Below the pieces are notes generated by a model. It did not search any database. It had not been told where the DNA came from and worked only from the letters and a program-made list of their open reading frames with translations. DNA of 47,560 nucleotides from a virus (taxonomy: Duplodnaviria; Heunggongvirae; Uroviricota; Caudoviricetes), in IMG/VR virus record IMGVR_UViG_2630968533_000001; one strand, given 5' to 3'. Positions 3,605 through 43,462 of the stretch are shown piece after piece (within the stretch, counting starts at the first letter, position 1; the number at the start of each line of letters is the position of its first letter). The translations under genes were made by a program, and so were the position numbers.

Positions 3605-3769
3605 TGTGATGATTCCCTTAAAGGTTAAGGATACTCACCACCGTCAGGTTCCAATCATTGGGTGGTGAGACGTGCAGGGTTGGAACTACCGGACACAATG
3701 ACGAACCGGCGAGTCTTACGACTCCCCCGCACGCCCCACCATAATTTGGGTGTAGCAGTGCTTTACGCA

Positions 3770-3869
3770 TAAAAAAACCGCTAACGCGGTATGCGCCATT
3801 GTGTCTACGGGGTTCCAATCCCGACCGTAGATTTTGCTACGGCTCGGAAAGTGTCCACCAATGGCGCAT
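3770..3869 (-). ncRNA. Candidate structured small RNA / leader element (c4-like hypothesis)
   Basis: On the minus strand an 11-bp terminal stem (3791-3801 with 3859-3869) encloses an inner hairpin ctacgg/ccgtag, followed by hairpin accgc-gtta-gcggt and a U7 run (3770-3790); loop sequence has a near-complement at about 3680-3695 in the downstream leader. Confidence 0.25.
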
Positions 3870-4360
3870 TCATGTCAATACGGCGGGATTTTAACAGAGA
3901 CAACCACATAGCGTGGGTTTATTGGTAGGCAGAAACAAAAAAACCGCCCTATTGAGGACGGTTCTTTCGTGCTGATCGGATTCGCGGTCCTTTCAGCATA
4001 ACGTCGTTGTATAAACAACCACGCAAGCACAAGCAGCAAGTTAATTTTACCCAAAAGGTAATAATAGTCCACTATTATGCTTCAAAAAATTGTGGTTCTT
4101 GTTGTGCCTGCAAACTCACAGATTGTGGGTAGGTTACTGATTTTGTGAAAATAAACGAGTTTTTTCGTTTAATTTCTTTCCTATTACTAATCTTAAAATA
4201 ATCGTAAAATACCTGTGGACCTTCCCGCCGATTCGCACCCGGGCACCGACTTTAGGGGAGGATTCTCCGTTGCCGTACATGCAAGCACAAGCAGCCGTGC
4301 TTGCTCTCGCGTTGTTTTCGTCGGTGGGGATGCCGTGAAACGGCCTGTAAGGGCCATACA

Positions 4361-4483
4361 ATGAAAAAATACTGTATGTGTATTTTTATCGTTGTTACTG
4401 GGGCTTTGTTTACGCCACATGGGGAGGGTTGGAAGATTACTGATAACGCTCTGAATGTGACGATAAACATTAGCAGCAAGTAG
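4361..4483 (+). CDS. Small hydrophobic ORF (40 aa, MKKYCMCIFIVVTGALF...), speculative
   Basis: In-frame ATG within ORF 4301-4483; hydrophobic N-terminus; followed by a strong terminator; no SD seen. Confidence 0.2.
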   Translation: MKKYCMCIFIVVTGALFTPHGEGWKITDNALNVTINISSK

Positions 4484-4487
4484 CGAT

Positions 4488-4512
4488 TAGGCCCCTTCGG
4501 GGGCCTTTTTTA
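4488..4512 (+). terminator. Rho-independent terminator (AGGCCCC-TTCG-GGGGCCT then T-run)
   Basis: Perfect GC-rich hairpin followed by TTTTTTAT. Confidence 0.55.
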
Positions 4513-4548: not shown

Positions 4549-4797
4549 TTACTTCTGGTTGTATTGAGCCTTGAGTAACTCAAAAGATTTTGTCAGCACT
4601 TCTTTCAATGACATATCCATTGAGCTGGCGAACGTTTTGTACTCGCGTTTAAATTCAGGGTCGACGTTAAACGCCATTTGTGCCCCACCTGATTTGGTTC
4701 TGGTTGGCGTTTCAGTCGGGTCGAAAACCTGCGGTTGTTCGATCGATGGCGGTACGCCTTTGCTGTTCTTCTTTGGTGGTTTTGATGGTCCGGCCAT
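4549..4797 (-). CDS. ParG-like small ribbon-helix-helix partition/centromere-binding protein (82 aa)
   Basis: ORF track; lies directly downstream of parA in the same orientation; basic flexible N-terminus and C-terminal RHH-like segment MAFNVDPEFKREYKTFASSMDMSLKEVL; SD AGAGGGGA upstream. Confidence 0.5.
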   Translation of the reverse strand: MAGPSKPPKKNSKGVPPSIEQPQVFDPTETPTRTKSGGAQMAFNVDPEFKREYKTFASSMDMSLKEVLTKSFELLKAQYNQK

Positions 4798-4840
4798 GTG
4801 TATCCCCTCTTATATAAATCTATAAAACTATAATTATATA

Positions 4841-5509
4841 TTACGCGGCAGTAGTCAGAGCCTCAAGCTGGTTGATAATCCCCTGAATAACGTCGTCTGC
4901 CTTTTTGCGTGGCGCAACGTATGAGCATTCAATGAGGCTTAAGCCCTTATCCTGAGCTTTGCTCAGAGCTGGCTTGTGGGGAATGTACTTATCGACAACA
5001 AAGTATGGCGTATTAGCCAGGTACTCTTGGGCTTCAATGTAGTCGGCTTCGTTTTCAGCCGCGCCTGAGAACACCATGCAAATTTTCTTGATTGGCACAC
5101 CCTTTTTAACGATGCCGTGAGCTGTGTTAACGGTGGTTTCCAGGTCATCGGTAGAGAATCTGGTTGGCAAAATAACCATATCCAGAAATTCAGAGAGCTT
5201 CGGTACTGATTCAGATGCGTAGGCACCGCCATCGACGATAACCAGGTCGTATACTTCTGATTCGATGATTTTCTGGACTTGTGATGGCGTGCCGCACGGC
5301 TGCGCCGCGATTGCAGGTTCGATATTGTTGGCCATTCTGCGTTGTACCCAACGCGTTACCGTTCCGTTAAGCACATCCATATCGATCAGGCATACATTCC
5401 AGCCGGCCTTTGCATAAGCAACTGCTAAAGCACGGGCAATTGTTGATTTGGTTACGCCGCCTTTTCCGTTGAAAATACCTACAGAGATAGTCATTTGTCG
5501 AGACTCCAT
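4841..5509 (-). CDS. parA: ParA/ParF-type partition ATPase
   Basis: ORF track; deviant Walker A GKGGVTKST near the N-terminus; about 220 aa, typical of small type Ib ParA proteins. Confidence 0.85.
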   Translation of the reverse strand: MESRQMTISVGIFNGKGGVTKSTIARALAVAYAKAGWNVCLIDMDVLNGTVTRWVQRRMANNIEPAIAAQPCGTPSQVQKIIESEVYDLVIVDGGAYASESVPKLSEFLDMVILPTRFSTDDLETTVNTAHGIVKKGVPIKKICMVFSGAAENEADYIEAQEYLANTPYFVVDKYIPHKPALSKAQDKGLSLIECSYVAPRKKADDVIQGIINQLEALTTAA

Positions 5510-5511
5510 GT

Positions 5512-5620
5512 ATTTGGTTATATAATTCTATAAATCTATATTTATAGAACGAGGTAAGCATAACCAACTTTTTGGCGGATGAAAAGCGTTTTATATAATT
5601 ATATAAATCTATAATCATGT
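5512..5620. repeat. Iterated AT-rich boxes upstream of parA (putative partition operator/centromere-like site)
   Basis: Two related boxes (5518-5549, 5589-5616) containing TATATAATT(A/C)TATA and AATCTATA; perfect 14-bp palindrome TATATAATTATATA at 5592-5605. Confidence 0.4.
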
Positions 5621-5644
5621 AAGCGGGCGTTAGCCCGCTTTCAG

Positions 5645-9292: not shown

Positions 9293-9343
9293 AAGTGTCA
9301 TTTTGAGCTGTTTTGATGGTGTGTAGACATCGGGAACATCGAA

Positions 9344-9461
9344 AATCTATAAATATATAATTATAGATTTATATAAAAAGTGCTTTACAGGTGGGAAAAA
9401 ATTTCCTATGGTTATACCCGAAACCGAGCGATACCCGCCCTGGTTAAACCGGAGAAATCTG
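9344..9461 (+). promoter_or_regulatory. Conserved promoter-leader cassette, copy 2
   Basis: About 95 bp identical to copies 1 and 3 (TTTATATAAAAAGTGCTTTACAGGTGGGAAAAAATTTCCTATGGTTATACCCGAAACCGAGCGATACCCGCCCTGGTTAAACCGGAG); ends at ATG 9462. Confidence 0.55.
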
Positions 9462-10538: not shown

Positions 10539-10568
10539 TACGGCGGGACGTCTCCCGCCGTATATAGA
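10539..10568 (+). terminator. Intrinsic terminator-like hairpin (CGGCGGGA-CGTC-TCCCGCCG) with T/A-rich tail
   Basis: Perfect 8-bp GC-rich stem directly after the stop at 10529. Confidence 0.45.
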
Positions 10569-10606
10569 ATTATATATTTATACAAATGTATAAGGACGCC
10601 TCGACA

Positions 10607-13365: not shown

Positions 13366-13511
13366 ACATTGCTTTTTTATTGATCGATTAACCACGATAT
13401 GAAGGTTTTTTTATGGGGAAACCTTGTTTTAGGTGGTAACTGGGTGTAGTGTTTCATTTAACGTAGTAAAACTGCGTTAAGCGATTACCGCGTAATTTGT
13501 TGCTTTATGAA

Positions 13512-13542
13512 GCCCTGCCTTTTTCGGCGGGGCTTTTTTTTT
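13512..13542 (+). terminator. Intrinsic terminator immediately upstream of the holin gene (tR'-like position)
   Basis: 8-bp stem GCCCTGCC/GGCGGGGC (one G-U pair) followed by a T9 run, 14 bp before the holin start. Confidence 0.5.
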
Positions 13543-13555
13543 AACGAGGATTTCA

Positions 13556-13951
13556 ATGTCAGCAGAACCAATTTCCGGTACGGCCGTTGCTGCTGGTGGC
13601 CTGATGGGTGCCAGCGTTTTTGGTATTGCAACTGGTATTGATTACGGCGTTGTATTCGGGGCATTTGCTGGCGCTGTTTTCTATGTTGCTACAGCGGTGA
13701 ATATTAGCCGTCTCAAGCTGATTGGCTATTTCTTTACATCGTTCATTGTTGGAGTGATTGGAGCGCCGTTAGTTGGCTCATTTCTTGCCAAATGGACCAG
13801 CTACAACGATCGACCTCTTGATGCGCTTGGTGCGGTTATTGTGGCTGCATTGACAATTAAAATCCTCACGTTCGTAAACAGCCAGGATCTCGGTAGCATC
13901 TTTGGAATGCTTTCCCGCTTACGTGGAGGGGGTTCAAATGGTAAGCAGTGA
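13556..13951 (+). CDS. Holin-like membrane protein (131 aa, multiple TM segments)
   Basis: ORF track; Gly/Ala-rich hydrophobic segments; first gene of the lysis cassette. Confidence 0.5.
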   Translation: MSAEPISGTAVAAGGLMGASVFGIATGIDYGVVFGAFAGAVFYVATAVNISRLKLIGYFFTSFIVGVIGAPLVGSFLAKWTSYNDRPLDALGAVIVAALTIKILTFVNSQDLGSIFGMLSRLRGGGSNGKQ

Positions 13952-14234
13952 CCCGTCAGCACTGATTAATGCGGTGCTTTGCACAGTAATAGTAATGGCG
14001 CTGATGCTTTATCGACGGAAAGACTCCAGGCATCGTCCATTTGTTTCCTTTCTGGCTTATATCTACGTCATTGTATACGCCAATGTTCCCTTCCGTTATG
14101 TGTTCGGTCTTTATCAAGAATCCCACTGGCTGGTGGTTATTGGAAATCTGATTATCTGCATCGTTGTTCTGTATTTCAGGGGCAATCTGGCGCGGATAGT
14201 TGACGCATTAGGATTTAATCATGACCAAAGATGA
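13938..14234 (+). CDS. Second holin/antiholin-like membrane protein
   Basis: ORF 13902-14234; likely start ATG 13938 with SD GGAGGGGG; three hydrophobic segments. Confidence 0.4.
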   Translation: MVSSDPSALINAVLCTVIVMALMLYRRKDSRHRPFVSFLAYIYVIVYANVPFRYVFGLYQESHWLVVIGNLIICIVVLYFRGNLARIVDALGFNHDQR

Positions 14235-14763
14235 GATTTTTAACAGCATTCTTGGAAAAGAGGGCGGCTATGTGGATCACCCTGACGACAAGGGAGGCCC
14301 AACAATGTGGGGCATCACTCAGAATACTGCCCGTGCTCACGGATACCGTGGCGATATGCGAGATCTGACGCGAGAACAGGCTCTGATGATTCTTGAAGGT
14401 GATTATTGGTATGGGCCTCGTTTTGACCAGGTGGCGCAATTTTCCCCTGATATTGCGGCTGAGATGTGCGATACGGGCGTCAACATGGGGCCGACTGTGG
14501 CTACGAAGATGCTTCAACGTTGGCTGAATGTTTTCAACCGTGGCGGGAAGTTGTATCCAGATATGGATGTGGATGGGCGAATCGGCCCGCGCACCATTGC
14601 GGCATTACGTGCTTATCTTGGGAATCGGGGAAAAGACGGCGAACGGGTAATGCTGACGGCCCTGAACTGTACGCAGGGCGACCGTTATCTGGACCTGGCG
14701 GAGAAACGCGAAGCAAATGAGTCGTTTGTCTATGGCTGGATGAAAGAGCGAGTGGTGGTATGA
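14221..14763 (+). CDS. Endolysin (GH108-like N-terminal domain plus peptidoglycan-binding C-terminal domain)
   Basis: ORF track; N-terminal GKEGGYVDHPDDKGGPTMWGIT is the GH108 signature as recalled; position between holin and spanins. Confidence 0.8.
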   Translation: MTKDEIFNSILGKEGGYVDHPDDKGGPTMWGITQNTARAHGYRGDMRDLTREQALMILEGDYWYGPRFDQVAQFSPDIAAEMCDTGVNMGPTVATKMLQRWLNVFNRGGKLYPDMDVDGRIGPRTIAALRAYLGNRGKDGERVMLTALNCTQGDRYLDLAEKREANESFVYGWMKERVVV

Positions 14764-15038
14764 CTGGTTTGAAGGCCGTTTTGTCATTTATTGGCACAAT
14801 TATATTGGTTGCATTCGGCGCGTTTGGTTTTGGTCGTATGAAGGGGCGAGAAAAGGCCGAAGATGAAGCTGAAAAGCAGCGCATTAATGAGAATGCAGCC
14901 GCCGTAAAAGCCACTGCGGAGCGGCGTATAGAAGTGACAAAAGAGGTGGGGAATGTACAGCAGAGTGTTAACCATATGGCTGATGACGATGTTGATCGCG
15001 AGCTGCGGGAGTCGTGGAAGCGTCCCGGTGGTGGTTGA
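14760..15038 (+). CDS. i-spanin (Rz-like)
   Basis: ORF track; N-terminal TM helix then charged coiled-coil; Rz1-like ORF begins inside its 3' end. Confidence 0.55.
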   Translation: MTGLKAVLSFIGTIILVAFGAFGFGRMKGREKAEDEAEKQRINENAAAVKATAERRIEVTKEVGNVQQSVNHMADDDVDRELRESWKRPGGG

Positions 15039-15162
15039 TACCGCCTGTGATTGGGTAAAGCCCATCTACCTGACTGATCACGACATCGATGTTATGGACC
15101 GCCAGACAAAGAAAGATATTCTGGCTCATAACAGGGCATGGGAAATCAACTGTCCAAAGTAA
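14953..15162 (+). CDS. o-spanin (Rz1-like lipoprotein) overlapping Rz in another frame
   Basis: ORF track; signal peptide with lipobox-like LIASC; starts within the Rz coding region. Confidence 0.55.
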   Translation: MYSRVLTIWLMTMLIASCGSRGSVPVVVDTACDWVKPIYLTDHDIDVMDRQTKKDILAHNRAWEINCPK

Positions 15163-15331
15163 TATATATTTCTATAATTATATAAATATATAGTTACAAC
15201 ATTCTATGCGCTTTTCTCATGGGCGCACGCATCAACCATGTTTGTCTGATATGCCGCCGCGCCCAAAAATCCTGAATTTATTGGCTGGGATTTTCGTGCG
15301 CGGCGCCACACCAGACAAACAAATCAAATAT

Positions 15332-15407
15332 GGCCCCTTAGCTCAGTGGTTAGAGCAGGCGACTCATAATCGCACGGTCATCGGTTCAAATCCGGTAGGG
15401 GCCACCA
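15332..15407 (+). tRNA. tRNA with CAT anticodon (tRNA-Met or lysidine-type tRNA-Ile2-like)
   Basis: Cloverleaf read by hand: acceptor GGCCCCT/AGGGGCC, D-arm GCTC/GAGC, anticodon loop CTCATAA (CAT at 15365-15367), T-arm ATCGG-TTCAAAT-CCGGT, encoded CCA; G1-C72 paired so not an initiator; 5' half resembles E. coli ileX as recalled. Confidence 0.85.
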
Positions 15408-15714
15408 ATTCACTCTCACACATAAAGATAAGCGCGGTGGAGTTACTTCTTCGTGCTCATCTTTATGCGTGCCTGGTGCGCATTTCGGGCGAACGTGGGG
15501 CTAAGTTACAGGCAGGGCCTGTTATCCGCAAAGGGGTAAAAGCTGGAGCGGCACGGAACTGTAGCCGTGTTACCAAAACAGCGTTGTCGGGCGATATCCG
15601 GCACACAACAGGCAAGGGCATTAATCAGTCTGGTTAGCGCCCTTTTCGTTGTGTTTGCTGTAGAGCTGGCCAGCGTTATGACTGCCGGAGATAAGCGCCG
15701 GAGGCACAATTAAC

Positions 15715-16302
15715 ATGGAGGAAATTGCATTGTTTAATCTGATTTATGCAGATCCCCCCTGGGAATACAAAGACAAGTGTAAGGATGGGAATCGTGGAGC
15801 TGGTTTTAAGTATCCAACGATGAAAGCTGAGGAGATTGCTCGTATTCCTGTCTGGCAGCTTGCTAATCCTGAATCGTGTTTGTTGGCCATGTGGTGGGTT
15901 CCGACTCAGCCAGAAGAAGCGTTGCTGGTGGTGAAAGCATGGGGATTCAGGCTTATGACCATGAAGGGCTTCACATGGAACAAATGTGGTAGCCGACAAC
16001 CAGATAAGCTGGTGATGGGGATGGGGCATATGACTCGTGCAAACAGTGAAGATTGCTTGTTTGCGGTAAAAGGCAAATTGCCGACCCGCCTTGATGCGGG
16101 GATCATTCAGTCGTTTACATCGCTTCGTCTGGAGCATTCTCGGAAGCCTGATGTGGTTCGTGACAAGCTGGTAAGGCTGTTAGGTGATGTTCCTCGTATT
16201 GAGCTGTTTGCTCGCGGTGATTTACCTGATGGTTGGCATGGCTGGGGCAACCAGTGCAATGGAGGTATCCAGTTGCATGATGCTCTCTGGCAAGTGGCAT
16301 AG
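15715..16302 (+). CDS. MT-A70 family adenine DNA methyltransferase
   Basis: ORF track; catalytic DPPW motif in LIYADPPWEYK near the N-terminus. Confidence 0.8.
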   Translation: MEEIALFNLIYADPPWEYKDKCKDGNRGAGFKYPTMKAEEIARIPVWQLANPESCLLAMWWVPTQPEEALLVVKAWGFRLMTMKGFTWNKCGSRQPDKLVMGMGHMTRANSEDCLFAVKGKLPTRLDAGIIQSFTSLRLEHSRKPDVVRDKLVRLLGDVPRIELFARGDLPDGWHGWGNQCNGGIQLHDALWQVA

Positions 16303-16415
16303 AATTATATAATTATATATTTATATAAAAAAGTGCTTTACAGGTGGGAAAAAATTTCCTATGGTTATACCCGAAACCGAGCGATACCCGCCCTGGTTAA
16401 ACCGGAGATAACCCG
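16303..16415 (+). promoter_or_regulatory. Conserved promoter-leader cassette, copy 3
   Basis: Near-identical to copy 1; perfect palindrome TATATAATTATATA at 16306-16319; -35 TTTACA 16337-16342, -10 TATGGT 16360-16365. Confidence 0.55.
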
Positions 16416-16685
16416 ATGAAAGTACAAGACCGTGAAGTAGTAAAAAACCTCCTGCAATACCTGACCTCAAAAAACCTGACGAGCAGCGTTGAGTTCCGTG
16501 AAGCGTTAAAACATTTCAACGTCACTACGGTTTATCGTTGGGAAAACAAACATTCTGAAAGACCGTATGTGGTGGATGTTTTTGCGCCTGATATTGAGTG
16601 CGGTTTTGAGCGCCATTCATTCAAAAAGAAACATTCCGCTGATGTTTTTTGTGAGGTTGTATGTGCGGCAGGAGATGATGAGTGA
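16416..16685 (+). CDS. Hypothetical protein (89 aa) expressed from cassette copy 3
   Basis: ORF track; ATG directly after the conserved leader. Confidence 0.55.
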   Translation: MKVQDREVVKNLLQYLTSKNLTSSVEFREALKHFNVTTVYRWENKHSERPYVVDVFAPDIECGFERHSFKKKHSADVFCEVVCAAGDDE

Positions 16686-16882
16686 TGCGTATTTCCTTCA
16701 AACGTGCGACTGAGCAGCAACGCAAAGAGTTCCTGGCTGATGATGTTGCGGCCGTTTATGACCTCATGAAAGAGGTTGTGGAATCAGGAAACTACACGGC
16801 GGCAAAGATGCTTAAACTGCAATTCTTGCTGGGCGACCTGAAATACAAATCCGAAGTTGTCGCCGGACGACGCGAGCATTAA
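16682..16882 (+). CDS. Hypothetical protein (66 aa)
   Basis: ORF track; coupled to the upstream gene; followed by a terminator. Confidence 0.45.
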   Translation: MMRISFKRATEQQRKEFLADDVAAVYDLMKEVVESGNYTAAKMLKLQFLLGDLKYKSEVVAGRREH

Positions 16883-16905
16883 ACCGTAACGATAACGAAC
16901 AACGA

Positions 16906-16931
16906 GCCTCGGCAATTGCCGGGGCTTTTTT
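16906..16931 (+). terminator. Rho-independent terminator
   Basis: 8-bp stem GCCTCGGC/GCCGGGGC with AATT loop, then TTTTTT. Confidence 0.5.
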
Positions 16932-16956
16932 ACATCCAGACAAAGGAGAACATGGG

Positions 16957-17256
16957 ATGCCTTCGACAAGCACCAAAAAAGAAATGGCGGTTAGTGATGT
17001 GCTTTACGCGCTTTCGACTATATGTGACGGAGCAATGATGAGGATGAAAGTCCTCCATGAAGCATACGAAAAAAGTCACGATGAGGCAGCTAAAGAGTGC
17101 CTGAATGAGATTGTGGACTTCCTTGATAGCCATCGTTCAGTTATATCGCGTCAACCGACAGCGTCGTCCATCACGATTAGCGCACCGGTTATCAATATAT
17201 CAGTAACTGCGGCGTGTAAATCAGCAGCGGAAGATGATTGTGCTTATGCCGAGTGA
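16957..17256 (+). CDS. Hypothetical protein (99 aa)
   Basis: ORF track. Confidence 0.45.
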   Translation: MPSTSTKKEMAVSDVLYALSTICDGAMMRMKVLHEAYEKSHDEAAKECLNEIVDFLDSHRSVISRQPTASSITISAPVINISVTAACKSAAEDDCAYAE

Positions 17257-17446
17257 TTTGTTCTGGTTTCCGCTTCCAATAAGAGATTTGTTGGTATTTC
17301 TGGCTGGCGCTTACGTCTGGAGAAAAGCGAAAGACACCTCGTTATCTTTGAGGTTTGTCTTGGCTATATCGGTAGGAACCGCGCTGGGGACGGCGTATCT
17401 TTTGACATTACTGGAGATATTCATTGAAGAATGGATAGTTTCATGA
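17234..17446 (+). CDS. Small membrane protein (70 aa, two hydrophobic segments)
   Basis: ORF track. Confidence 0.4.
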   Translation: MIVLMPSDLFWFPLPIRDLLVFLAGAYVWRKAKDTSLSLRFVLAISVGTALGTAYLLTLLEIFIEEWIVS

Positions 17447-17595
17447 ATGGTGTTGGCATTTTTCTGATGGTTGTGGCCGTGTGGTTTTGTTTCTCGCTGG
17501 TGTTTATTGCTGGTGTCCTGTGGCGCATCTTAGTGGCGCAGACAGCTTTTCGGCGTAAGCGAGAGCAAATGCACCTTGATTTATATCGAAAGTAA
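17443..17595 (+). CDS. Small membrane protein (50 aa), not in the ORF track
   Basis: Hand translation: ATG 17443 overlapping the upstream TGA, MNGVGIFLMVVAVWFCFSLVFIAGVLWRILVAQTAFRRKREQMHLDLYRK, stop 17593-17595, followed by a terminator. Confidence 0.3.
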   Translation: MNGVGIFLMVVAVWFCFSLVFIAGVLWRILVAQTAFRRKREQMHLDLYRK

Positions 17596-17602
17596 CTCTT
17601 AC

Positions 17603-17634
17603 AGCCTCGCGGTGTCGCGGGGCTTTTTATTTTC
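17603..17634 (+). terminator. Rho-independent terminator
   Basis: Stem AGCCTCGCG/CGCGGGGCT with GTGT loop, then TTTTTATTTTC. Confidence 0.5.
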
Positions 17635-17644
17635 AGGTGATGTT

Positions 17645-18055
17645 ATGGAAAAGAAAGAAGATAAACCGATTGCCATTGGTGCAGAGTCTGTTCCGTTTAA
17701 GTTTGAATTATCCCAACTGGTAACAATGCGTATCAGTGACGAATGGGGAGAAGTTCAAGCCCGTGCTCAGTATGCAAATGGCGAAAACCAGTATCTGATT
17801 CACTATCAGGCGGCTGATGGCCGTGCTACCACAGAGTGGTTCGGTGAGTCGATGCTGATTGCGATGGAGGATAAACGTCATCCTGGCTGCCCTGTTTTTG
17901 CCTGTATTGATTTGCCAGAAGGCGCGGTACTTGAAGACGACGAAGAAGAATGCTCATCTGATGGCGAACTTGTCATTACCGGAATCGTTGATGGTAAGCC
18001 GGAATACTCTCGTATTGAGGTAAATAACGGCTGCCTCCGTTTGATCCCTGCGTAA
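17645..18055 (+). CDS. Hypothetical acidic protein (136 aa)
   Basis: ORF 17576-18055; in-frame ATG 17645 downstream of the terminator. Confidence 0.5.
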   Translation: MEKKEDKPIAIGAESVPFKFELSQLVTMRISDEWGEVQARAQYANGENQYLIHYQAADGRATTEWFGESMLIAMEDKRHPGCPVFACIDLPEGAVLEDDEEECSSDGELVITGIVDGKPEYSRIEVNNGCLRLIPA

Positions 18056-18116
18056 CGCATTACAGCAGCTCTTGTGCCTATCAGGGGCTGCGATAATGCG
18101 CAAACCAAAGCTGCCT

Positions 18117-18160
18117 CATTAACTCCAGCTCGCTGTGGAGTTAATGCTGGTGGCTTTTTT
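18117..18160 (+). terminator. Terminator-like 11-bp perfect hairpin with downstream T-run
   Basis: CATTAACTCCA-GCTCGCTG-TGGAGTTAATG then GCTTTTTT a few nt later. Confidence 0.4.
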
Positions 18161-18289
18161 ATTACTGGAAGGTGGGCGACCGCCGTCAGTTGCGACCTGA
18201 CGACAGTCATTCATACCCACAGGGTGCCGTGGATACAAACCGAGGCCCACTTGCTTGCACAAGCGAGGGGATTTTAGCGGATAAACGGC

Positions 18290-18913
18290 ATGACAAAACA
18301 ACTTAATGTGGTTTCTTTACCACTTTCTGTGTTGATTGGTTATGAAAAGAACGCTCGCACACACTCCGTGGAGCAGGTAGATCAGATTGTTGCCAGCATA
18401 CAGGAGTACGGATGGACTAATCCGATCCTGATAGACGAGAACAACGTTGTAATTGCTGGTCATGGTCGAATTGCTGCGGCCACTCAGTTGGGGATGGATG
18501 ATGTTCCCTGCATTGTTCTGGCTGGGCTAACGGAGAATCAGAAGAAGGCATATCGTCTGGCCGACAACCGTATTCCGCTGAATGCTGGTTGGGATGAAGA
18601 GCTGTTAAGCGCGGAGCTTGCAGATCTTGCGGCCGATGATTTTGCTCTGGACTCAATTGGTTTTACTCAGCGCGAACTGGATAACTTATTGAGTGCGGCG
18701 GTCTACGATGACACAGAGGGTATGGATATCCCATTTGAGAAGGATGAGGCCAAATCAGGCGTAAAAGTTCAGTACCTGTCATTTGGAGGTCATAAAATCC
18801 CGGCAACGGATGAGGAAGCGGATCGTTTTGACTGCGCGGTGTCTCGTTATGTTGATGATAATGGCAGCTATATCGGATTTGTATCCGCATTGCTGGCTGG
18901 GGAGGTGTGCTAA
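18290..18913 (+). CDS. ParB/Srx-like N-terminal domain protein
   Basis: ORF track; ParB-like nuclease-domain pattern with AGHGRIAAA; paralogue of the gene at 21579. Confidence 0.7.
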   Translation: MTKQLNVVSLPLSVLIGYEKNARTHSVEQVDQIVASIQEYGWTNPILIDENNVVIAGHGRIAAATQLGMDDVPCIVLAGLTENQKKAYRLADNRIPLNAGWDEELLSAELADLAADDFALDSIGFTQRELDNLLSAAVYDDTEGMDIPFEKDEAKSGVKVQYLSFGGHKIPATDEEADRFDCAVSRYVDDNGSYIGFVSALLAGEVC

Positions 18914-20286
18914 TGCTTCACCTCAATTACGACATAACGCACCTACGCGGCGCGGAATATAACCCGCGTTTTATCGGTGAAGATGATCTTGCGAGGCTGG
19001 CGGAAAGCGTCAGGGAGCTGGGGCTTGTGAAGCCATTGATAGTGCGCGGCGATTTGCTGGTGGCGGGACACCAAAGGACGAAGGCGCTACGTAAGTTGGG
19101 AATAACGCGTGCTGCGGTGTATGTGTTGCCCTGTGAAACGACGGTATACGACGAAGTACGGTTTAACCAACTGCATAACGGAACGGATTTTGATAGCGGA
19201 GATGAGCGTTGCAGGGTGTCCGGTCTGGAAGATAAGCATGGTTTTGTTCAGGTATCGGCAAGCCAGATCTCAGGCAATATGCGCGCGAAAATGGCATATG
19301 TTCGAAAGAACATAGCGGAACTGGTTATCAAGTATGGTCCGTGGGGTGGTTGTGTTGCGACTCAGTCTGGCGAGGTTATTCACTGTGCTCAGTATGCATT
19401 AGCAGCGAAGATGACGCGTACACCGCTAACGGTGTTTGTGATCCCTGATGTTGAGAAGGAAAAATACCAAAGTTATCTGAATAAAACTTATGGTGTATTT
19501 GAGTATTCTCATCTGGAGAAAACAACATACATCCAGACGTATGCGCAGCTTATGCGGTTGCGTAATGGTGGCAGCCTGAAATCAAACCTGTATGAGTCGT
19601 TGATCCTCCCGATCATTGCCAAGACGCCAAGAGGAATTGATTTTGGTTCGGGGCAGGGAGACTACGCGCGAATGCTCAGGGCAAAGGGATATAACCTGCA
19701 TGATCTCGAGCTTTTCCGCCGTAAGGGCGCTGGAAACACTCTGGATAGGACCGCAACAAACCGGATGATTGATACGCTGGTGGACGACTTAAAAACGCGA
19801 GGGCGTTACGACTACGTGATTTGCGATAGCGTTTTGAACTCGGTCGATAGTGTCGAGGCTGAATGGTCCGTTCTGACGGTTCTGAAAGGCTTGTGTAAAG
19901 CTGGTGGGTCAATATTCTTTTCTGGCCGTAGCCGTGGAGAGCTGGAAACAGTCCTGAAGCAAACACAAGCTGCGAGTTCCAAAAGCCGGCTTTATTTTAT
20001 TGATCATAACGGTTTTACCGCGTTGTACCGGAAGGGGCACTGGTTTTACCAGAAGTTTCACTCTGATGAGGAAGTGAAGCAGTTGTGTCGTGTACATGGT
20101 TTCAGGATTAAGCGGTCAATATTCAACTGTAAGAGCTGGTATTTGCACGTCATTAACGATGATTCCCTTAGTTGGGCGAGTCTGGAGAAAGCTGTTCGTT
20201 TTGAGTTTGAGTTGCCGTTGCCTGGTGGTTCAACAATCGGACGATCTGATGATGTGCTGGCGGCTTTCCGGCCGTTGATTAAGTAG
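18907..20286 (+). CDS. ParB-like N-terminal domain fused to a class I SAM-dependent methyltransferase-like domain (459 aa)
   Basis: ORF track; N-terminal LIVRGDLLVAGHQRTKALRKLG ParB-like; C-terminal GIDFGSGQGDYARML (motif I-like) and RYDYVICDSVLN; no DPPY/NPPY DNA-methylase motif seen. Confidence 0.6.
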   Translation: MLMLHLNYDITHLRGAEYNPRFIGEDDLARLAESVRELGLVKPLIVRGDLLVAGHQRTKALRKLGITRAAVYVLPCETTVYDEVRFNQLHNGTDFDSGDERCRVSGLEDKHGFVQVSASQISGNMRAKMAYVRKNIAELVIKYGPWGGCVATQSGEVIHCAQYALAAKMTRTPLTVFVIPDVEKEKYQSYLNKTYGVFEYSHLEKTTYIQTYAQLMRLRNGGSLKSNLYESLILPIIAKTPRGIDFGSGQGDYARMLRAKGYNLHDLELFRRKGAGNTLDRTATNRMIDTLVDDLKTRGRYDYVICDSVLNSVDSVEAEWSVLTVLKGLCKAGGSIFFSGRSRGELETVLKQTQAASSKSRLYFIDHNGFTALYRKGHWFYQKFHSDEEVKQLCRVHGFRIKRSIFNCKSWYLHVINDDSLSWASLEKAVRFEFELPLPGGSTIGRSDDVLAAFRPLIK

Positions 20287-20302
20287 TGTGTAGGAGGCGC
20301 TG

Positions 20303-21022
20303 GTGGCTGACAGAATTGAGATAAAGATGGATTTTTCTTCTCAGGATATTCAACGACAACTCCAGCGCCTTGAAGAACGCGAATTGCCGTTCGCAATGGC
20401 GCTTGCGGCAACCAGAACGGCAAAGGCTTCTCAGGCTGCGATTAAGAATGAAATTAATCGGGTATTTGACAGGCCCACGCCGTGGATTCAGAACTCTACT
20501 TACGTTTTGGCCGCAAAGAAGGGTGATCCTACAGCCATTGTGTATGCTCGTGAATGGGGAGGAACGCCAGCACCTGTAACGTTGACTCCGCAAATCGAAG
20601 GTGGCCAACGACAGTACAAACGCTCAGAAGGGGCGCTAAGGGCTGGTGGATATTTGCCTAACGGCTGGCAGCTTGCTCCTGGTCCCGGCGCAAAGCTGGA
20701 CAAATACGGGAATATTTCGCGGGGGCAATTACAGCAGGTCTTATCTGGCCTAAGAGTTCAGCGAGATGCGCATCAAAATCGCCGTCAGGGCAAGCCTACG
20801 GAGTTTTTTGTTGTTCGACCTGGTACAAGTAACCCGCTTCAACCAGGCGTCTGGCAGCGCGTTGGGCGGCGTCCTACGTTGATCCTTACGTTTATCCAGC
20901 AACCTAACTATTCGCAGCGTCTTGATTGGCATGGCGTGGCGCTGCGTGCTGGTGAGGATGCGTTTGCTGATGAAGTCACAAAGGCTATTGATGACATTCT
21001 TTCTAAGACCTTCTCTCGTTAA
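20303..21022 (+). CDS. Hypothetical protein (239 aa)
   Basis: ORF track; no domain recognised. Confidence 0.5.
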   Translation: MADRIEIKMDFSSQDIQRQLQRLEERELPFAMALAATRTAKASQAAIKNEINRVFDRPTPWIQNSTYVLAAKKGDPTAIVYAREWGGTPAPVTLTPQIEGGQRQYKRSEGALRAGGYLPNGWQLAPGPGAKLDKYGNISRGQLQQVLSGLRVQRDAHQNRRQGKPTEFFVVRPGTSNPLQPGVWQRVGRRPTLILTFIQQPNYSQRLDWHGVALRAGEDAFADEVTKAIDDILSKTFSR

Positions 21023-21199
21023 TCATCGTGTGGTTGATGGTGTTGTTATGCAGAGTGTATTCACTGTGTTCTGTAGCGTCGCTCGCTGGCTGTCTGTGGG
21101 GGAGCACGAGCATCGTTTCATCGTCCGGCAGAATTGGGTCCTTCTGGCCAAAAGCGTTGGATGCGGGTCATTCGAACCCCGATATTCGGCTAGCTAAAC

Positions 21200-21578
21200 G
21201 TGAAAAAAGTTAGGTTAAAAGTTGCGGTAAAAGAAATTTACTCATCTCATTGAAAAATATCGGGAAAACGTGATTTTTTCTGTATTTGTGCTGGTAAAAA
21301 GAAAGTGGAAAATTTTCTTTTAGATCATCAAGATACGCGCAGATCTTTAACCAATGTGATGTTGTTCTGATAAAAATCGTTATAAATCATGCAAATACAT
21401 CCAATCTTTTAACCAAAACACCATCGCAAGATCCTTTTTACTTATAAAAACTTAATAAAATCAGATAATTATGCTGGTTTGTGTGATTTTTCATGAGTAA
21501 AAAGATCGTCATTTTTCTCTTTTAGTATCAATAAGTTAAACAGTTTTCTTTAACCTGTTGTGTTATGGCGGTTAAAAA
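21200..21578. promoter_or_regulatory. AT-rich non-coding region with an imperfect ~75-bp direct repeat and GATC-containing boxes
   Basis: Matching blocks (GTAAAAAG, TTTTAG, TTTAACC) in 21290-21370 and 21493-21570 offset by about 203 bp; 379 bp without an ORF. Confidence 0.35.
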
Positions 21579-22169
21579 ATGGCTCTAAAAATCGAATATT
21601 TACCAGTCGGTAAGTTGCTCAGATATGCCAAAAATTCACGGACTCATTCAGATGAGCAAGTTGAACAGTTGGTGAACAGTATCCGTGAGTTCGGTTTCAC
21701 TAATCCTGTGCTGATCGATGAAAAGAATGAACTGATTGCGGGGCATGGGCGGCTTGCAGCAGCCGAAATTCTGGAAATGGATAAAGTTCCGGCGATTCGG
21801 TTGAGTAACCTTTCTGAAAAACAGAAGAAGGCTTACAGGATTGCAGATAACAAGCTGGCCTTAAATGCTGGCTGGGATATGCAGCTTCTGGCCGAAGAAG
21901 TCAAAGAGTTAATGGATGATGATTTTGATATTGATCTGCTTGGGTTTAATGATGCAGAGCTTGACGAAATGTTAAGCGATGAACAGCCGCAGGAAGAAGA
22001 CGATAATTCTTCCCCTGTTGTTCAAATTAAGTACCTGGCTATTGATAAAGAACGTATTCCCGCGACGGATATGGAAATTGCATTGTTGCTGGATGTTTAT
22101 CGTCAGTACCACGACGCGCATGAAACGCATGAGGGATTTGTTCAGTATCTTGCTAATGGTTGCAAGTAA
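21579..22169 (+). CDS. ParB/Srx-like N-terminal domain protein
   Basis: ORF track; paralogous to 18290-18913 (shared LIAGHGRLAAA and QKKAYRIADN motifs). Confidence 0.7.
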   Translation: MALKIEYLPVGKLLRYAKNSRTHSDEQVEQLVNSIREFGFTNPVLIDEKNELIAGHGRLAAAEILEMDKVPAIRLSNLSEKQKKAYRIADNKLALNAGWDMQLLAEEVKELMDDDFDIDLLGFNDAELDEMLSDEQPQEEDDNSSPVVQIKYLAIDKERIPATDMEIALLLDVYRQYHDAHETHEGFVQYLANGCK

Positions 22170-22720
22170 TGGCCATCGTCAGTAAGTCAGAGTTTGCCCG
22201 CCGGAAAGGTATTTCTCCGGCAATGGTTACGAAGCTCTGTCGTTCCGGTCGCATTCCAGTGCTGAAAAGCGGCAAGCTGGATTTTGATAAAGCCAGTGCG
22301 GCTTATGAAGCGAGCCGACAGGTTGGTCGTGAGGTATCTGCTGAAAATGGAAAAAGAGGGCATGGGATATCTTCGGAACAACCAGAGTTACCCGCTGATG
22401 ATGCCGGATTAGCTGGTGGTACTTCCGGTGTTGCGGTGCAATTCAACAAGGCTAAGACCGCAGAAAAAATTTATCAGGCAAAGCTGAAACGCCTTGAATT
22501 TGAAGAAAAGGAAGGCTCTCTCATCGCTAAAGATGCGGTCAGGGATGATGCATTTCTGGCAGCTAATGAATTGCGTAGCCGCTTATTTAGTATTGCTCCA
22601 AGAGCAGCTCCCCGTTGTGAAGGCAAAACAGCCAGGGAGATCGAGCGCATTATTGAAGACGAGATTAATTTTGCGCTTCAGGCGCTCCAGGAATCCCGAT
22701 TTATTAAGCAGGAAGAATAA
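22169..22720 (+). CDS. terS: Terminase small subunit
   Basis: ORF track lists a TTG start at 22160; ATG 22169 overlaps the upstream stop (TAATG); N-terminal HTH-like segment; immediately upstream of terL. Confidence 0.6.
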   Translation: MAIVSKSEFARRKGISPAMVTKLCRSGRIPVLKSGKLDFDKASAAYEASRQVGREVSAENGKRGHGISSEQPELPADDAGLAGGTSGVAVQFNKAKTAEKIYQAKLKRLEFEEKEGSLIAKDAVRDDAFLAANELRSRLFSIAPRAAPRCEGKTAREIERIIEDEINFALQALQESRFIKQEE

Positions 22721-22725
22721 ACCTC

Positions 22726-24582
22726 ATGGGCGAAACAGTATGGAGCACCGCTTTTTTCCGTGCGCTTCGCCCTAAATCACGGCTAACTGTTTCCGAATGG
22801 GCTGATAAGTATCGTCATGTAGCGCCGGGAACGTCTCCAGAGCCAGGGCCGTGGCGTACAAGCCGAGTGCCATATTTGCGTGAACCAATGGATGTTATTG
22901 GTGACGCTGATACAGAAACAGTAGTGATGCAATGTAGCTCGCAAATTGGTAAATCCGAATTACAGCTAAATGTTATGGGTTACTTTGCAGATCAGGAGCC
23001 ATCTCCTCAGTTGATGATTTATCCAACGGTAGAGGCGGCTGAGGCTTTTTCAAAAGAGCGTATTGATCCGACGTTCAAATATTCCCCTGGTTTGAAACAC
23101 AAGCTGCATGAAGGGAAAGAGGGGCGCGGTGCAGCCAAAAAGTCCAGCACGACTATACGTATGAAGCATTACGCTGGTGGATATATAGCACTTGTTGGTG
23201 CTAATTCCCCAGCAGGTCTTGCATCCAGGCCAATTCGAATACTGTTAGCTGATGAGATTGATCGTTACGGTGTGACGCAGGAGGGCGACCCACTAAAACT
23301 AGGTATTCAGCGTACTACCAACTTTCATAATCGTAAGAAAGTTTTTGTTTCTACTCCTGTTTTGGAGGAAACAAGCAAAATCCACAAGTGGTTTAAGCTC
23401 TCCGATCAGCGTTACTACCATGTTCCTTGCCCATGTTGTGGCACCATGCAGGTGATGAAATGGTCGCAAGTCAGATGGGATAAGAGCGATTCAGGTGAGG
23501 CGTTACCGGAAACGGCCAGATATGAGTGCTGTGAGTGCGGCGGGATTATGCGCGGATCTGGTAAACCAGACGTTGATTGGTTGGCGAAGGGGGTATGGAT
23601 AGCTGAACATACTGGAGTTAAAGGTATTGTTGGTTTTCATATTAACAGTCTTTACTCCCCGTGGGTTGCATTGTCAGAGCTGGTTGAAGAATTTACGGAA
23701 GCAACCAGAAACCGCGATAAAAATGGATTAATGGAGTTTATTAACCTTAAGCTGGGTGAGCCATGGAAAGAGGATGCTAAAGACGATATCGATCCTGAAT
23801 ACTTGTTGCAACGCAGAATAAGGTTTGAAGAGTTTTTACCAGATGATGTTTTATTGTTAAGTGCTGGTGTTGACGTACAGGACACGTATTTAGTTTGTGA
23901 ATTGGTCGGTTGGGGAAAAGGTAAGGAGTCATGGGGGATAGAATATAAAATATTCCCAGGTGATCCCGCACAAGATGTTGTCTGGAAACAACTTGATGAA
24001 TACTTACTCCGTAGCTGGTCATTCCGTGACGGTCGAAAATTACAGATTTCTTCCGTTTGTATTGACTCTGGTGGGCATTTTACGACAGAGGTATATCGCT
24101 TTACTAAGCCGAGAGAATCAAGGCGAATATACTCTATCAGGGGGCGTGGTGGGGTAGGTTTACCATTTATAGGAAAGCCAAGTAATAATAACCGTGTGGG
24201 TGCTATGTTGTTTAATTTGGGGGTTGATGATGGTAAAGGGACCATCATGGCAAGAATTAAACTACATGATCCTGGTCCTGGTTATATGCATTTCCCATTA
24301 GATTCTGACAGAGGATATGATACCGAATACTTTAAAGGATTATTATCAGAGAAAAAAATATTTGAATATAAAAATGGGCAGACAAAAGAAAAGTGGGTGA
24401 AAGTCTACGAGCGTAACGAGCCTCTTGATTGCCGTAACTATGCAACTGCCGCGATGGAAATTCTGAACCCTAATTTTAACTGGCTTGCCGAACAGGAAAT
24501 GCGAGGTAATGTGTATGTGCAGAACTCGTCAGGTATACGTAGAAGACGCCGTAGAGTTATAAGTAAAGGCGTAACCATATAG
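22726..24582 (+). CDS. terL: Terminase large subunit (lambda GpA family)
   Basis: ORF track; 618 aa with LLADEIDRY-type ATPase motif and lambda gpA-like organisation as recalled. Confidence 0.9.
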   Translation: MGETVWSTAFFRALRPKSRLTVSEWADKYRHVAPGTSPEPGPWRTSRVPYLREPMDVIGDADTETVVMQCSSQIGKSELQLNVMGYFADQEPSPQLMIYPTVEAAEAFSKERIDPTFKYSPGLKHKLHEGKEGRGAAKKSSTTIRMKHYAGGYIALVGANSPAGLASRPIRILLADEIDRYGVTQEGDPLKLGIQRTTNFHNRKKVFVSTPVLEETSKIHKWFKLSDQRYYHVPCPCCGTMQVMKWSQVRWDKSDSGEALPETARYECCECGGIMRGSGKPDVDWLAKGVWIAEHTGVKGIVGFHINSLYSPWVALSELVEEFTEATRNRDKNGLMEFINLKLGEPWKEDAKDDIDPEYLLQRRIRFEEFLPDDVLLLSAGVDVQDTYLVCELVGWGKGKESWGIEYKIFPGDPAQDVVWKQLDEYLLRSWSFRDGRKLQISSVCIDSGGHFTTEVYRFTKPRESRRIYSIRGRGGVGLPFIGKPSNNNRVGAMLFNLGVDDGKGTIMARIKLHDPGPGYMHFPLDSDRGYDTEYFKGLLSEKKIFEYKNGQTKEKWVKVYERNEPLDCRNYATAAMEILNPNFNWLAEQEMRGNVYVQNSSGIRRRRRRVISKGVTI

Positions 24583-42845: not shown

Positions 42846-43462
42846 TGGCATTCAGAATGAGTGAACAATCACGTACCGTAAAAATTTATAACCTGCTGGC
42901 CGGAACTAATGAGTTTATTGGTGAAGGTGACGCATATATTCCACCTCATACAGGGCTGCCAGCTAATTCTACAGATATCGCCCCACCGGAAATTCCTGCT
43001 GGCTTTGTGGCAGTTTTTAACAGTGAAAATGAATCGTGGAATATTGTTGAAGACCATCGTGGTAAAACGGTCTATGACGTGGCGTCGGGGGACGCATTGT
43101 TTATTTCTGAACTCGGACCGCTACCAGAGAATGTCACCTGGTTGTCGCCAGCAGGGGAGTATCAGAAGTGGGACGGCGTATCCTGGGTGAATGATGAGGA
43201 AGCAGAAAAACTGTTTCGGATACGGGAAGCGGAAGAGAAAAAGGCAAGGTTGATCCAGGAAGCAACAGATAACATCGCAATTCTGCAGGATGCAGTTAAT
43301 CTTGAAATAGCAACAAACGAGGAAAATTCACAACTGGATTCCTGGAGAAAATACAGAGTATTAGTGAGTAGAATTGACACCAGTACAGCTCCGGATATCG
43401 TATGGCCAGAGCTGATGAATCAGGGTTATGTTCGGGAGGACGAGCAGATAACTTCAGACTGA
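42845..43462 (+). CDS. Tail fibre assembly protein (Tfa)
   Basis: ORF track; 205 aa immediately after the fibre gene. Confidence 0.75.

Follow-up and report, generated by a model that had tools for sequence, protein, structure and literature searches.

The interval at positions 15163-18289 lies between the lysis genes and the packaging genes of an Escherichia coli phage-plasmid, whose complete sequence forms the 47,560-base window (the whole stretch of DNA that was analysed). It follows the lysis cassette (13556-15162), whose five genes encode two holins, a GH108 endolysin, Rz and Rz1, and it is closed by the first gene of a ParB module at 18290. Behind Rz1 the order is an AT-rich array, a long hairpin, a tRNA, two further hairpins, an MT-A70 methylase gene and a promoter-leader cassette; behind the cassette come orf89, orf65, terminator T1, orf99, orf70, orf50, terminator T2, orf136 and terminator T3, the open reading frames (ORFs) being named by their length in amino acids (aa). 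These features are as follows:

15154-15203: AT-rich array with TATA boxes every 8 bp, directly after the Rz1 stop codon; one of seven such loci
15239-15321, plus strand: long stable hairpin upstream of the tRNA (-40.3 kcal/mol, z -5.9), without a U-run
15332-15407, plus strand: tRNA-Ile2 with anticodon CAU (ARAGORN; Rfam tRNA model, 67 bits)
15417-15471, plus strand: hairpin 3' of the tRNA (-25.4 kcal/mol, z -5.0)
15600-15658, plus strand: hairpin containing an inner GC stem, with UUUUCGUU behind it (-26.7 kcal/mol, z -4.25)
15715-16302, plus strand: orphan MT-A70 (beta-class) N6-adenine DNA methyltransferase, 195 aa
16292-16415, plus strand: third copy of the promoter-leader cassette with its array; the 115-nt repeated unit is 16301-16415
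16416-16685, plus strand: orf89, first gene behind the cassette
16685-16882, plus strand: orf65, translationally coupled to orf89 through a TGATG overlap
16904-16935, plus strand: terminator T1 (hairpin 16904-16927), 10-bp GC-rich stem and U6 (-18.8 kcal/mol, z -4.7)
16957-17256, plus strand: orf99, acidic, phrog_8319, with a good Shine-Dalgarno (SD) sequence (AAGGAGA)
17234-17446, plus strand: orf70, small and hydrophobic (grand average of hydropathy 1.05; hydrophobic segment at residues 39-60), not called by PGAP
17443-17595, plus strand: orf50 (54 aa if the start is 17431), annotated by PGAP
17603-17632, plus strand: terminator T2 (hairpin 17603-17624), 9-bp stem and U-run (-16.6 kcal/mol, z -3.1)
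17645-18055, plus strand: orf136, acidic, phrog_1935, with an L33-like beta-rich core at about residues 15-96 and a variable C-terminal extension
18107-18160, plus strand: terminator T3 (hairpin 18107-18157; -27.5 kcal/mol, z -4.2), then U6; end of the variable stretch

The initial annotation had described this interval as an accessory island of about 3 kb, inserted between lysis and packaging genes and carrying one tRNA, an MT-A70 methylase, a promoter cassette copy, seven small ORFs (three of them membrane proteins) and four intrinsic terminators. The lysis cassette, the tRNA, the methylase and the cassette copy are all present as stated. Six of the small ORFs are credible (89, 65, 99, 70, 50 and 136 aa); the seventh, a 67-aa frame with a GTG start at 18074-18277, overlaps T3, bears no signature of coding (its few substitutions are mostly non-synonymous) and was discarded, as was a spurious 143-aa frame at 15206-15637 that runs across the tRNA. 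Only two of the products (orf70 and orf50) can be upheld as membrane proteins, and three terminators (T1-T3) are canonical, while the fourth (15600-15658) is weak and atypical. The accessory character of the region, with turnover of its genes, holds; the picture of a 3-kb insertion does not, as TerS lies 7.0 kb from the lysis genes (TerS starts at 22169 and TerL at 22726) and part of the interval is a conserved skeleton.

The window aligns, with an offset of 910 bases, to plasmid p5 of E. coli 254D-1 (47,558 bp, circular), which a 9.3-kb query from the window matches with 100% coverage and 99.9% identity, and it represents a complete circular replicon. Genes for RepA, a small ParA, a RelE/ParE toxin-antitoxin pair and a CI-like repressor share this replicon with a complete myovirus gene set that includes a lambda gpA-type terminase, and the element is therefore a complete E. 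coli phage-plasmid. Its closest relatives, 97-98% identical, are 47-52 kb plasmids in 73 of 5,426 complete E. coli genomes, that of the reference strain ATCC 25922 among them; PLSDB holds 61 such plasmids, none mobilizable, and three isolated Yersinia pestis phages (vB_YpM_39, vB_YpM_41 and vB_YpM_44) belong to the same family. Two Salmonella plasmids, one of which is pAR-0407-1, have the same backbone as the window at about 76% identity. The next-closest TerL proteins, 63-65% identical, belong to Vibrio phages, whose annotation contains none of the genes of 15163-18289; the region is wholly absent there, which limits comparison at that distance. A TerL-based scan of species genomes returned only three short gut-metagenome contigs, none with the interval, and no description of the island in this phage-plasmid family was found in the literature.

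Across the related elements, genes of the interval are swapped or deleted both within the E. coli/Yersinia family and in the Salmonella relatives, so that its content varies and does not form a set conserved throughout in known roles. Neither Salmonella relative has the tRNA, orf65, orf99 or orf70; in one of the two, an ORF of 251 aa stands between T1 and a gene similar to orf50. What both retain is the first array, the long hairpin, the MT-A70 gene and the cassette, together with a gene like orf89 and an L33-like gene of 87 aa, and homology to the two plasmids resumes at 18094. Within the 97-98% identical family, orf136 is truncated, replaced by a DUF2513 protein, or represented by a tail-fibre-assembly pseudogene plus a variant. 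Orf89 is cut to eight codons fused to orf65 in three relatives (L002, L006 and L007) and replaced together with orf65 in a fourth (L008), and it is thus dispensable. In relatives, another sequence replaces the C-terminal half of orf99, which yields a protein of 151 aa; the breakpoint lies after nucleotides 173-179. The interval is accordingly composed of a lineage-conserved skeleton and of variable inserts, namely the tRNA, orf65, orf99/orf70 and the C-terminus of orf136. Its base composition is native, not foreign, with a GC fraction of 0.477, to be compared with the values for the lysis genes (0.495), the ParB block (0.497) and the early region (0.49).

The position of the interval is not peculiar to this element. 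The initial annotation had taken lysis genes of lambdoid phages to run directly into the packaging genes; this does not apply to phiP27, in which L31-L34 sit between the two, or to lambdoid prophages of Serratia and Klebsiella, in which the order is Q, holin, lysozyme, Rz, one or two small ORFs of unknown kind, ParB, ParB-methyltransferase and TerS. In lambda, bor and other ORFs follow the lysis genes and precede cos. Since small ORFs stand between Rz and ParB in the Serratia and Klebsiella prophages, the interval can be regarded as a general variable slot that is longer here.

The tRNA was read by ARAGORN as a tRNA-Met from its CAT anticodon, an identity that was dropped, as PGAP annotates it as tRNA-Ile in six independent records; it is on this ground assigned as a lysidine-type tRNA-Ile2. 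C4-G69 and C5-G68 stand in its acceptor stem, which together with the 5' half matches E. coli ileX, the first 42 nt being equal; these features speak for a body of Ile2 type and not of Met type. Once modified with lysidine, it would decode AUA. This codon accounts for 211 of the 13,016 codons of the replicon (16.2 per thousand, 25% of Ile codons) and is concentrated in the genes for the tape measure (20), gpJ (18), TerL (13), gpD and the fibre, whereas in E. coli it occurs at about 4-5 per thousand (about 7% of Ile codons). Late tRNA genes are known from Shiga toxin (Stx) and other lambdoid phages (ileZ-argN-argO of the 933W type; ileZ/argO of phiP27, where they are presumed to supply rare codons), and they share with this one a CAU tRNA-Ile, a late location and a methylase gene alongside. 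The tRNA is similar to phiP27 ileZ, from which it differs in the D-arm and T-arm. In phiP27, however, the order is methylase L24, ileZ, argO, stx and lysis, whereas here a single tRNA follows the lysis genes and is paired with an MT-A70 gene. In Salmonella pAR-0407-1, about 376 nt of unrelated sequence (L029, 6595-6970) occupy the place of the tRNA; Rfam gave no match and no tRNA in this segment.

Three hairpins frame the tRNA gene and the approach to the methylase gene. The long hairpin at 15239-15321 has no U-run and is therefore not a terminator; it may be an RNA-processing or mRNA-stability element. The matching segment of pAR-0407-1 (L029, 6513-6597) also folds (-45.5 kcal/mol, z -6.0) although its bases have changed. 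The hairpin at 15600-15658 is possibly a weak, atypical fourth terminator ahead of the methylase gene, although the consensus terminator scan did not pick it up. Apart from the tRNA, Rfam at a permissive threshold returned no RNA family over the island.

The methylase matches Pfam PF05063 over its full length (model positions 1-172 of 172; E 9.8e-23, 81.4 bits against a cut-off of 23.9), phrog_359 (DNA methyltransferase; E 2.7e-101) and the PADLOC model MTase_II (E 1.2e-67). Its DPPW motif occupies residues 13-16, within YADPPWEY at residues 11-18, and its relatives in PDB are MTA1 and METTL3. It is 76% identical to the methylase of phiV10 and about 72% identical to those of Stx2a phages. The gene was found in every relative examined and shows 13-16 nucleotide differences with only 3-4 amino-acid differences; to judge from these substitutions, it is under purifying selection. 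No nuclease gene adjoins it, its neighbours being the tRNA and small ORFs without a match to a nuclease family, and the enzyme is therefore an orphan and not part of a restriction-modification system. Phage MT-A70 enzymes are N6-methyladenine DNA methylases, with GATC specificity in p32 of Serratia phage BZS1 and in Tn1549 (PMC7556043). The enzymes of phiV10, the Stx2a phages, BZS1 and Tn1549 resemble this one in Pfam family, size, DPPW motif, orphan state and temperate-phage context; in BZS1, HK639 and the Stx2a phages, however, the gene is found close to the integrase and not, as in this element, behind the lysis cassette. The most likely role of the enzyme would be self-protection of phage DNA. 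Over the whole window GATC occurs 130 times against 209 expected (observed/expected 0.62), and among 4-bp palindromes only CTAG is more strongly under-represented; as a pointer to the methylase target this depletion is suggestive only and not diagnostic.

The cassette upstream of orf89 is the third of three copies (39-153, 9348-9460 and 16301-16415), which are near-identical, nearly all columns of their alignment being invariant. It consists of a TATA array (16298-16327), a -35 element TTTACA (16337-16342), a 17-nt spacer that holds the palindrome GGAAAAAATTTCC at 16347-16359 (GGAAA-N3-TTTCC), a -10 element TATGGT (16360-16365) and a 50-nt leader with an SD sequence GGAG (16404-16407) before the ATG at 16416. 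The -35 and -10 elements are sigma-70-like, with 9 of 12 consensus matches, and were returned as a promoter-like site by a consensus scan; the variation among leaders falls in the loop of a predicted hairpin. The cassette was found in every relative examined; most of the 73 matching E. coli records have it at three places (median 3), and it is about 90% conserved in the Salmonella relatives against about 75% identity of the backbone. The other copies precede a gene for a 126-aa protein (154) and a DUF3560 operon (9462); because the same cassette stands before these two other operons, orf89 and orf65 are probably co-regulated by the element's own machinery.

The six small ORFs had no match in Pfam, NCBIfam, PADLOC (which covers defence systems only) or PDB, and PHROGs placed them, where it placed them at all, in families without known function; seven alternative cargo ORFs of relatives and three slot ORFs of Serratia and Klebsiella prophages likewise gave no Pfam, NCBIfam or PADLOC match. 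Orf89 matches positions 1-88 of the 218 of phrog_6143 (E 5e-52), the N-terminal domain of that family, and is homologous to the N-terminus of gp62 of Erwinia phage Pavtok; its first 60 or so residues are kept in Salmonella proteins of 97 aa (47% identical). Orf65 belongs to phrog_6621 (E 7e-49), and its 2-4 nucleotide and 0-1 amino-acid differences among relatives indicate purifying selection, while tblastn gave no match in either Salmonella relative. Changes in the MT-A70 gene, orf65 and orf70 are mostly synonymous, with three nucleotide and no amino-acid differences for orf70 in two relatives. The 6-7 nucleotide differences of orf99 lead to six amino-acid differences, and the 8-10 of orf50 to 7-8. 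Homologues of orf99 are confined to the roughly 48-kb contigs of this family, so that no deeper alignment was possible. Orf50 is a predicted single-pass membrane protein (transmembrane window at residues 1-36, basic C-terminus, pI 10.9) with a 46%-identical homologue in S. salamae; it matches no PHROG family, and orf70 matches none in Pfam or PHROGs.

The core of orf136 is 81% identical to L33 of phiP27, which lies with L32 between the lysis cassette and HNH-cos-terS and so occupies the same position; orf136 differs in an extra C-terminal domain of about 40 aa, and L32 is not similar to orf50. An exhaustive search placed the L33-like core in 620 representative clusters, and a Pfam scan of long proteins with this domain gave weak Lcl_C matches only. 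Candidates for roles in exclusion or host interaction are, first of all, the two membrane proteins and the L33-like protein.

None of 200 shuffles folded as well as T1, T2 or T3, and no promoter was detectable for orf99-orf70-orf50 or for orf136. Upstream of the lysis cassette, a non-coding stretch at 13366-13555 closes with a strong terminator (13509-13536 and U9) 10 nt before the holin start, and no Q-like gene was identified. The position of this terminator hints at late transcription of an antitermination type, which might read through T1-T3.

Taken together, these observations lead us to regard 15163-18289, as the probable reading, as a variable, non-essential right-end region of a temperate phage-plasmid, made of a conserved skeleton and swappable inserts, with the tRNA as a help to translation and the orphan methylase as a protector of phage DNA. 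What is observed is the gene content, the repeats and terminators, the bias in codon use and the turnover among relatives; all functions and the pattern of expression are deduced. The tRNA-Ile2 would supply decoding of AUA, a codon rare in E. coli, for the AT-rich late genes of the element, and the methylase would modify the phage genome ahead of its packaging and thereby shield incoming genomes from restriction or from other attack that is sensitive to methylation. The cassette would drive orf89 and orf65 up to T1, in step with the two other operons of the replicon, and the units orf99-orf70-orf50-T2 and orf136-T3 would probably be expressed by read-through together with late or lysis transcription.

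Several points weigh against this reading. The absence of the tRNA from the Salmonella relatives makes it an optional aid and not a requirement. A GATC target of the methylase, if that is its target, would duplicate the activity of host Dam. The non-synonymous bias in orf99 and orf50 fits an arms race and weak or absent constraint equally well, and the AlphaFold2 (AF2) model of orf136, from 34 homologues, is poor (pLDDT 50). A consensus scan returned 7 promoter-like sites where shuffles gave 13.3, and 11 terminator-like sites where shuffles gave 9.2, without enrichment; individual promoter and terminator calls depend on their own fold statistics and conservation, not on such generic scans, and the model of promoter use and read-through is built entirely from consensus matches and geometry.

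The initial annotation had favoured anti-defence, superinfection-exclusion or toxin-like morons, by which the small ORFs would benefit the lysogen or the infecting phage. Under the working definition of a moron (PMC2629481), variability among relatives is seen for the tRNA, orf65, orf99/orf70, orf89 and the C-terminus of orf136, whereas the MT-A70 gene, the cassette, the orf89-like N-terminus and the L33-like core occur in all relatives examined. A foreign composition, often cited for morons although not obligatory, was not seen, and as to own signals, orf89-orf65 has a sigma-70-like promoter and T1, while the other units have terminators only. The variable inserts are thus morons in part: by their variability and lack of a structural role, only partly by predicted independent expression, and not by composition. 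The interval resembles lambdoid morons and right-end regions (bor of lambda, the ORFs between Rz and cos, the P22-like 'ant moron' described in PMC2629481) as a variable late-operon stretch of terminator-closed small genes with no role in morphogenesis or lysis. It differs from them in having one promoter only, which is the element's own cassette, and a native composition, in that about half of the stretch is skeleton conserved across genera, and in being carried by a plasmid-prophage whose tail is of myovirus type and not by a lambdoid siphovirus.

Such a cargo function agrees with the one-by-one swapping of genes among 97-98% identical elements, the two small membrane proteins, the non-synonymous excess in orf99 and orf50, the repeated loss of orf89 as against the constant presence of the coupled orf65 in the E. 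coli/Yersinia family, the units ending in terminators, and a cargo that matches no characterised family in the libraries searched. The same searches, however, revealed no similarity to a characterised anti-defence, exclusion or toxin protein (PADLOC being limited to defence systems), and the sole promoter comes from a cassette that the phage itself carries in repeated copies, so the genes are not autonomous foreign morons. Native composition also speaks against this explanation, the conservation of L33-like and orf89-like genes across genera fits a role in the phage cycle better than strain-specific cargo, and for the tRNA and the methylase there are ordinary explanations that are more specific. 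We therefore hold moron cargo to be a possible but rather unlikely account of the small ORFs as a whole.

A different account starts from the AT-rich arrays. The 14-mer TATATAATTATATA (up to two mismatches) has 19 hits in seven clusters, against 0.22 expected, and in the first array of the island it matches at 15163, 15171 and 15179. About 40 nt of this array are identical in Salmonella pAR-0407-1, against flanks of about 79%. The seven intergenic arrays are:

31-74
4805-4843
5505-5621, upstream of parA
9340-9383
10554-10595
15154-15203
16292-16335

The arrays at 5505-5621 and 4805-4843 bracket the gene for the 217-aa ParA. Downstream of parA lies a gene for an 82-aa partner (4549-4797, minus strand), in which a disordered tail and a pattern like that of ribbon-helix-helix (RHH) proteins were recognised by eye; the partner had no match in Pfam or PDB. 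In the type Ib partition system ParF/ParG of TP228, the parH site consists of tetramer boxes, and the omega protein of pSM19035 binds heptad arrays at several promoters. The arrays here share with these sites short boxes in a 7-8 bp phase, upstream of a small parA and of other promoters of the replicon; they differ in that the box is TATA and in that the RHH pattern was seen by eye only. By this analogy, the arrays may be centromere-operators of ParG/omega type; alternatively, they may serve as UP elements or as operators for the CI-like repressor. On a broader proposal, arrays and cassettes would be read by the ParG-like ParA partner or another phage regulator, tying accessory and early genes to the state of plasmid maintenance, and the fast-changing orf99, orf70, orf50 and the L33-like family would act as exclusion or counter-defence factors; we consider this proposal as a whole unlikely.

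The segment might instead be largely a regulatory and RNA-processing spacer of the late operon, whose arrays, hairpins and terminators would insulate transcripts or make them more stable, with orf99, orf70 and orf50 among ORFs that are not genes. This would account for the dense conserved RNA structure, including the long hairpin kept in Salmonella and three or four terminators, for the lack of any sign of purifying selection in orf99 and orf50, for the missing PGAP call of orf70, and for the lack of a PHROG family for orf70 and orf50. It does not accommodate the synonymous-biased change or distant homologues of orf65, orf70, the MT-A70 gene and orf136, the good SD sequence and PHROG family of orf99, or the S. 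salamae homologue of orf50, and it appears very unlikely.

A role of the genes as core parts of lysis or packaging, for instance as lysis regulators or packaging cofactors, is still less probable: they share the late region and the strand of the lysis and packaging genes, an L33-like gene is found between the lysis genes and the terminase genes both of phiP27 and of the E. coli and Salmonella elements, and the MT-A70 gene and the cassette accompany every relative examined, but most of the ORFs vary in presence among viable, widespread relatives, isolated Yersinia phages included, and the annotation of the Vibrio relatives lacks these genes. Finally, a discrete mobile element (an integrative element or transposon) at the tRNA, which the tRNA gene and the inverted AT-rich arrays around the tRNA-methylase segment (32 nt, 88% complementary) could bring to mind, was rejected as extremely improbable, for there is no integrase, transposase or other recombinase gene in or beside the stretch, the apparent terminal repeats are two of the seven replicon-wide arrays, GC content is native, flanking direct repeats are absent, and relatives differ by internal segment swaps and not by one clean insertion.

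The variable stretch is followed by 18290-22169, which contains two ParB/Srx genes, a gene for a ParB_N-S-adenosylmethionine (SAM) methyltransferase, orf239 and a 556-nt AT-rich non-coding stretch. The features from there into the terminase genes are as follows:

18290-20286, plus strand: ParB/Srx (207 aa; gene at 18290-18913) and ParB_N-class I SAM methyltransferase (457 aa), by Pfam and PHROGs
20303-21022, plus strand: orf239, basic, phrog_1924 (E 6.7e-97; family label 'minor tail protein'), the final gene ahead of the probable cos
21150-21190: probable cos, divided as GCG and GGTCATTCGAACCCC
21579-22720, plus strand: second ParB/Srx (196 aa; gene at 21579-22169; phrog_620, ParB_N), then TerS (phrog_57, E 7e-42)
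22726-24582, plus strand: TerL, with GpA ATPase and nuclease domains

A ParB of about 200 aa and a ParB_N-methyltransferase of about 460 aa recur as a pair, usually in overlapping or near-adjacent frames. At a distance of 0-2 kb upstream of terS/terL, the pair was found in a Bacteroides phage, in three metagenomic contigs (L019, L025 and L026) and in the Serratia and Klebsiella prophages, next to terminases of four different types, and it occurs with no identified terminase nearby in a Bradyrhizobium prophage region and in another metagenomic contig (the records of the pair are L015, L019, L021 and L025-L027). Because it adjoins terminase genes in very distant phages, the boundary drawn at 18290 is meaningful. 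Identity within the module is 45-60% in proteobacterial and metagenomic homologues and 36% in the Bacteroides phage; homologues fall into at least 777 clusters, and the motifs GHQR, RFNQLHNGTDxD and IDFGSGQGDY are invariant. Amidoligase_2 and GGACT/AIG2 genes recur beside the module in three distant prophage or metagenome contexts (L017, L025 and L026).

The 457-aa protein ends in a Methyltransf_23 domain with the motif IDFGSGQG, and its structural neighbours are small-molecule and tRNA methylases. The AF2 model of the ParB-methyltransferase has a pLDDT of 93.8, and Foldseek returned generic class I methyltransferases only, with no whole-chain analogue in PDB. The protein has no DPPY-type motif, and by its motifs the methyltransferase domain is not of the DNA amino-methylase type; a fusion of ParB with an adenine methylase of the Bce_0392 type (PMC5512222) was accordingly rejected, ParB_N being present and (D/N)PP(Y/F/W) absent. 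No description of the ParB/ParB-methyltransferase module was found in the literature, and PDB sequence searches with orf239 and the 207-aa ParB gave nothing useful.

Orf239 is 85% identical in Salmonella pAR-0407-1 and had no match in Pfam or PDB. The alignments of vB_YpM_39 and vB_YpM_41 both stop at window position 21165, the last base of these records, in which TerL starts at 1562; since the records end there, cos was placed at about 21165, a probable location 143 nt past orf239, with about 410 nt from there to the start of the second ParB gene. The 196-aa ParB is 48% identical to the 207-aa ParB, and in other phages the ParB member of the module is an orthologue of both. The two paralogues sit one on each side of the probable cos.

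Two further loci of the replicon were noted. At 3658-4511, Rfam detected C4 antisense RNA, isrK and ryfA beside a Rha-family gene and an ORF6N antirepressor-like gene, which suggests, by analogy with P1 and P7, an antisense immunity circuit of their type besides the CI-like repressor. At 43426-43971 (minus strand), just past the tail-fibre assembly gene and on the opposite strand, lies a gene like those of left-handed beta-helix (LbetaH) acyltransferases, which may be another cargo gene of moron type.

The island of this phage-plasmid is a variable region of a textbook type, and its value lies in the good resolution of the example that it offers, in a family that about 1% of complete E. coli genomes carry; here the separation of skeleton from slot yields a short list of small proteins for tests of exclusion or counter-defence. 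Three features around it may matter more for the biology of these elements: the pair of ParB and ParB-SAM-methyltransferase that lies upstream of terminase genes across phyla, the promoter-leader unit that is near-identical in three places of one replicon and across genera, and the phased TATA arrays that possibly link plasmid partition to gene control.

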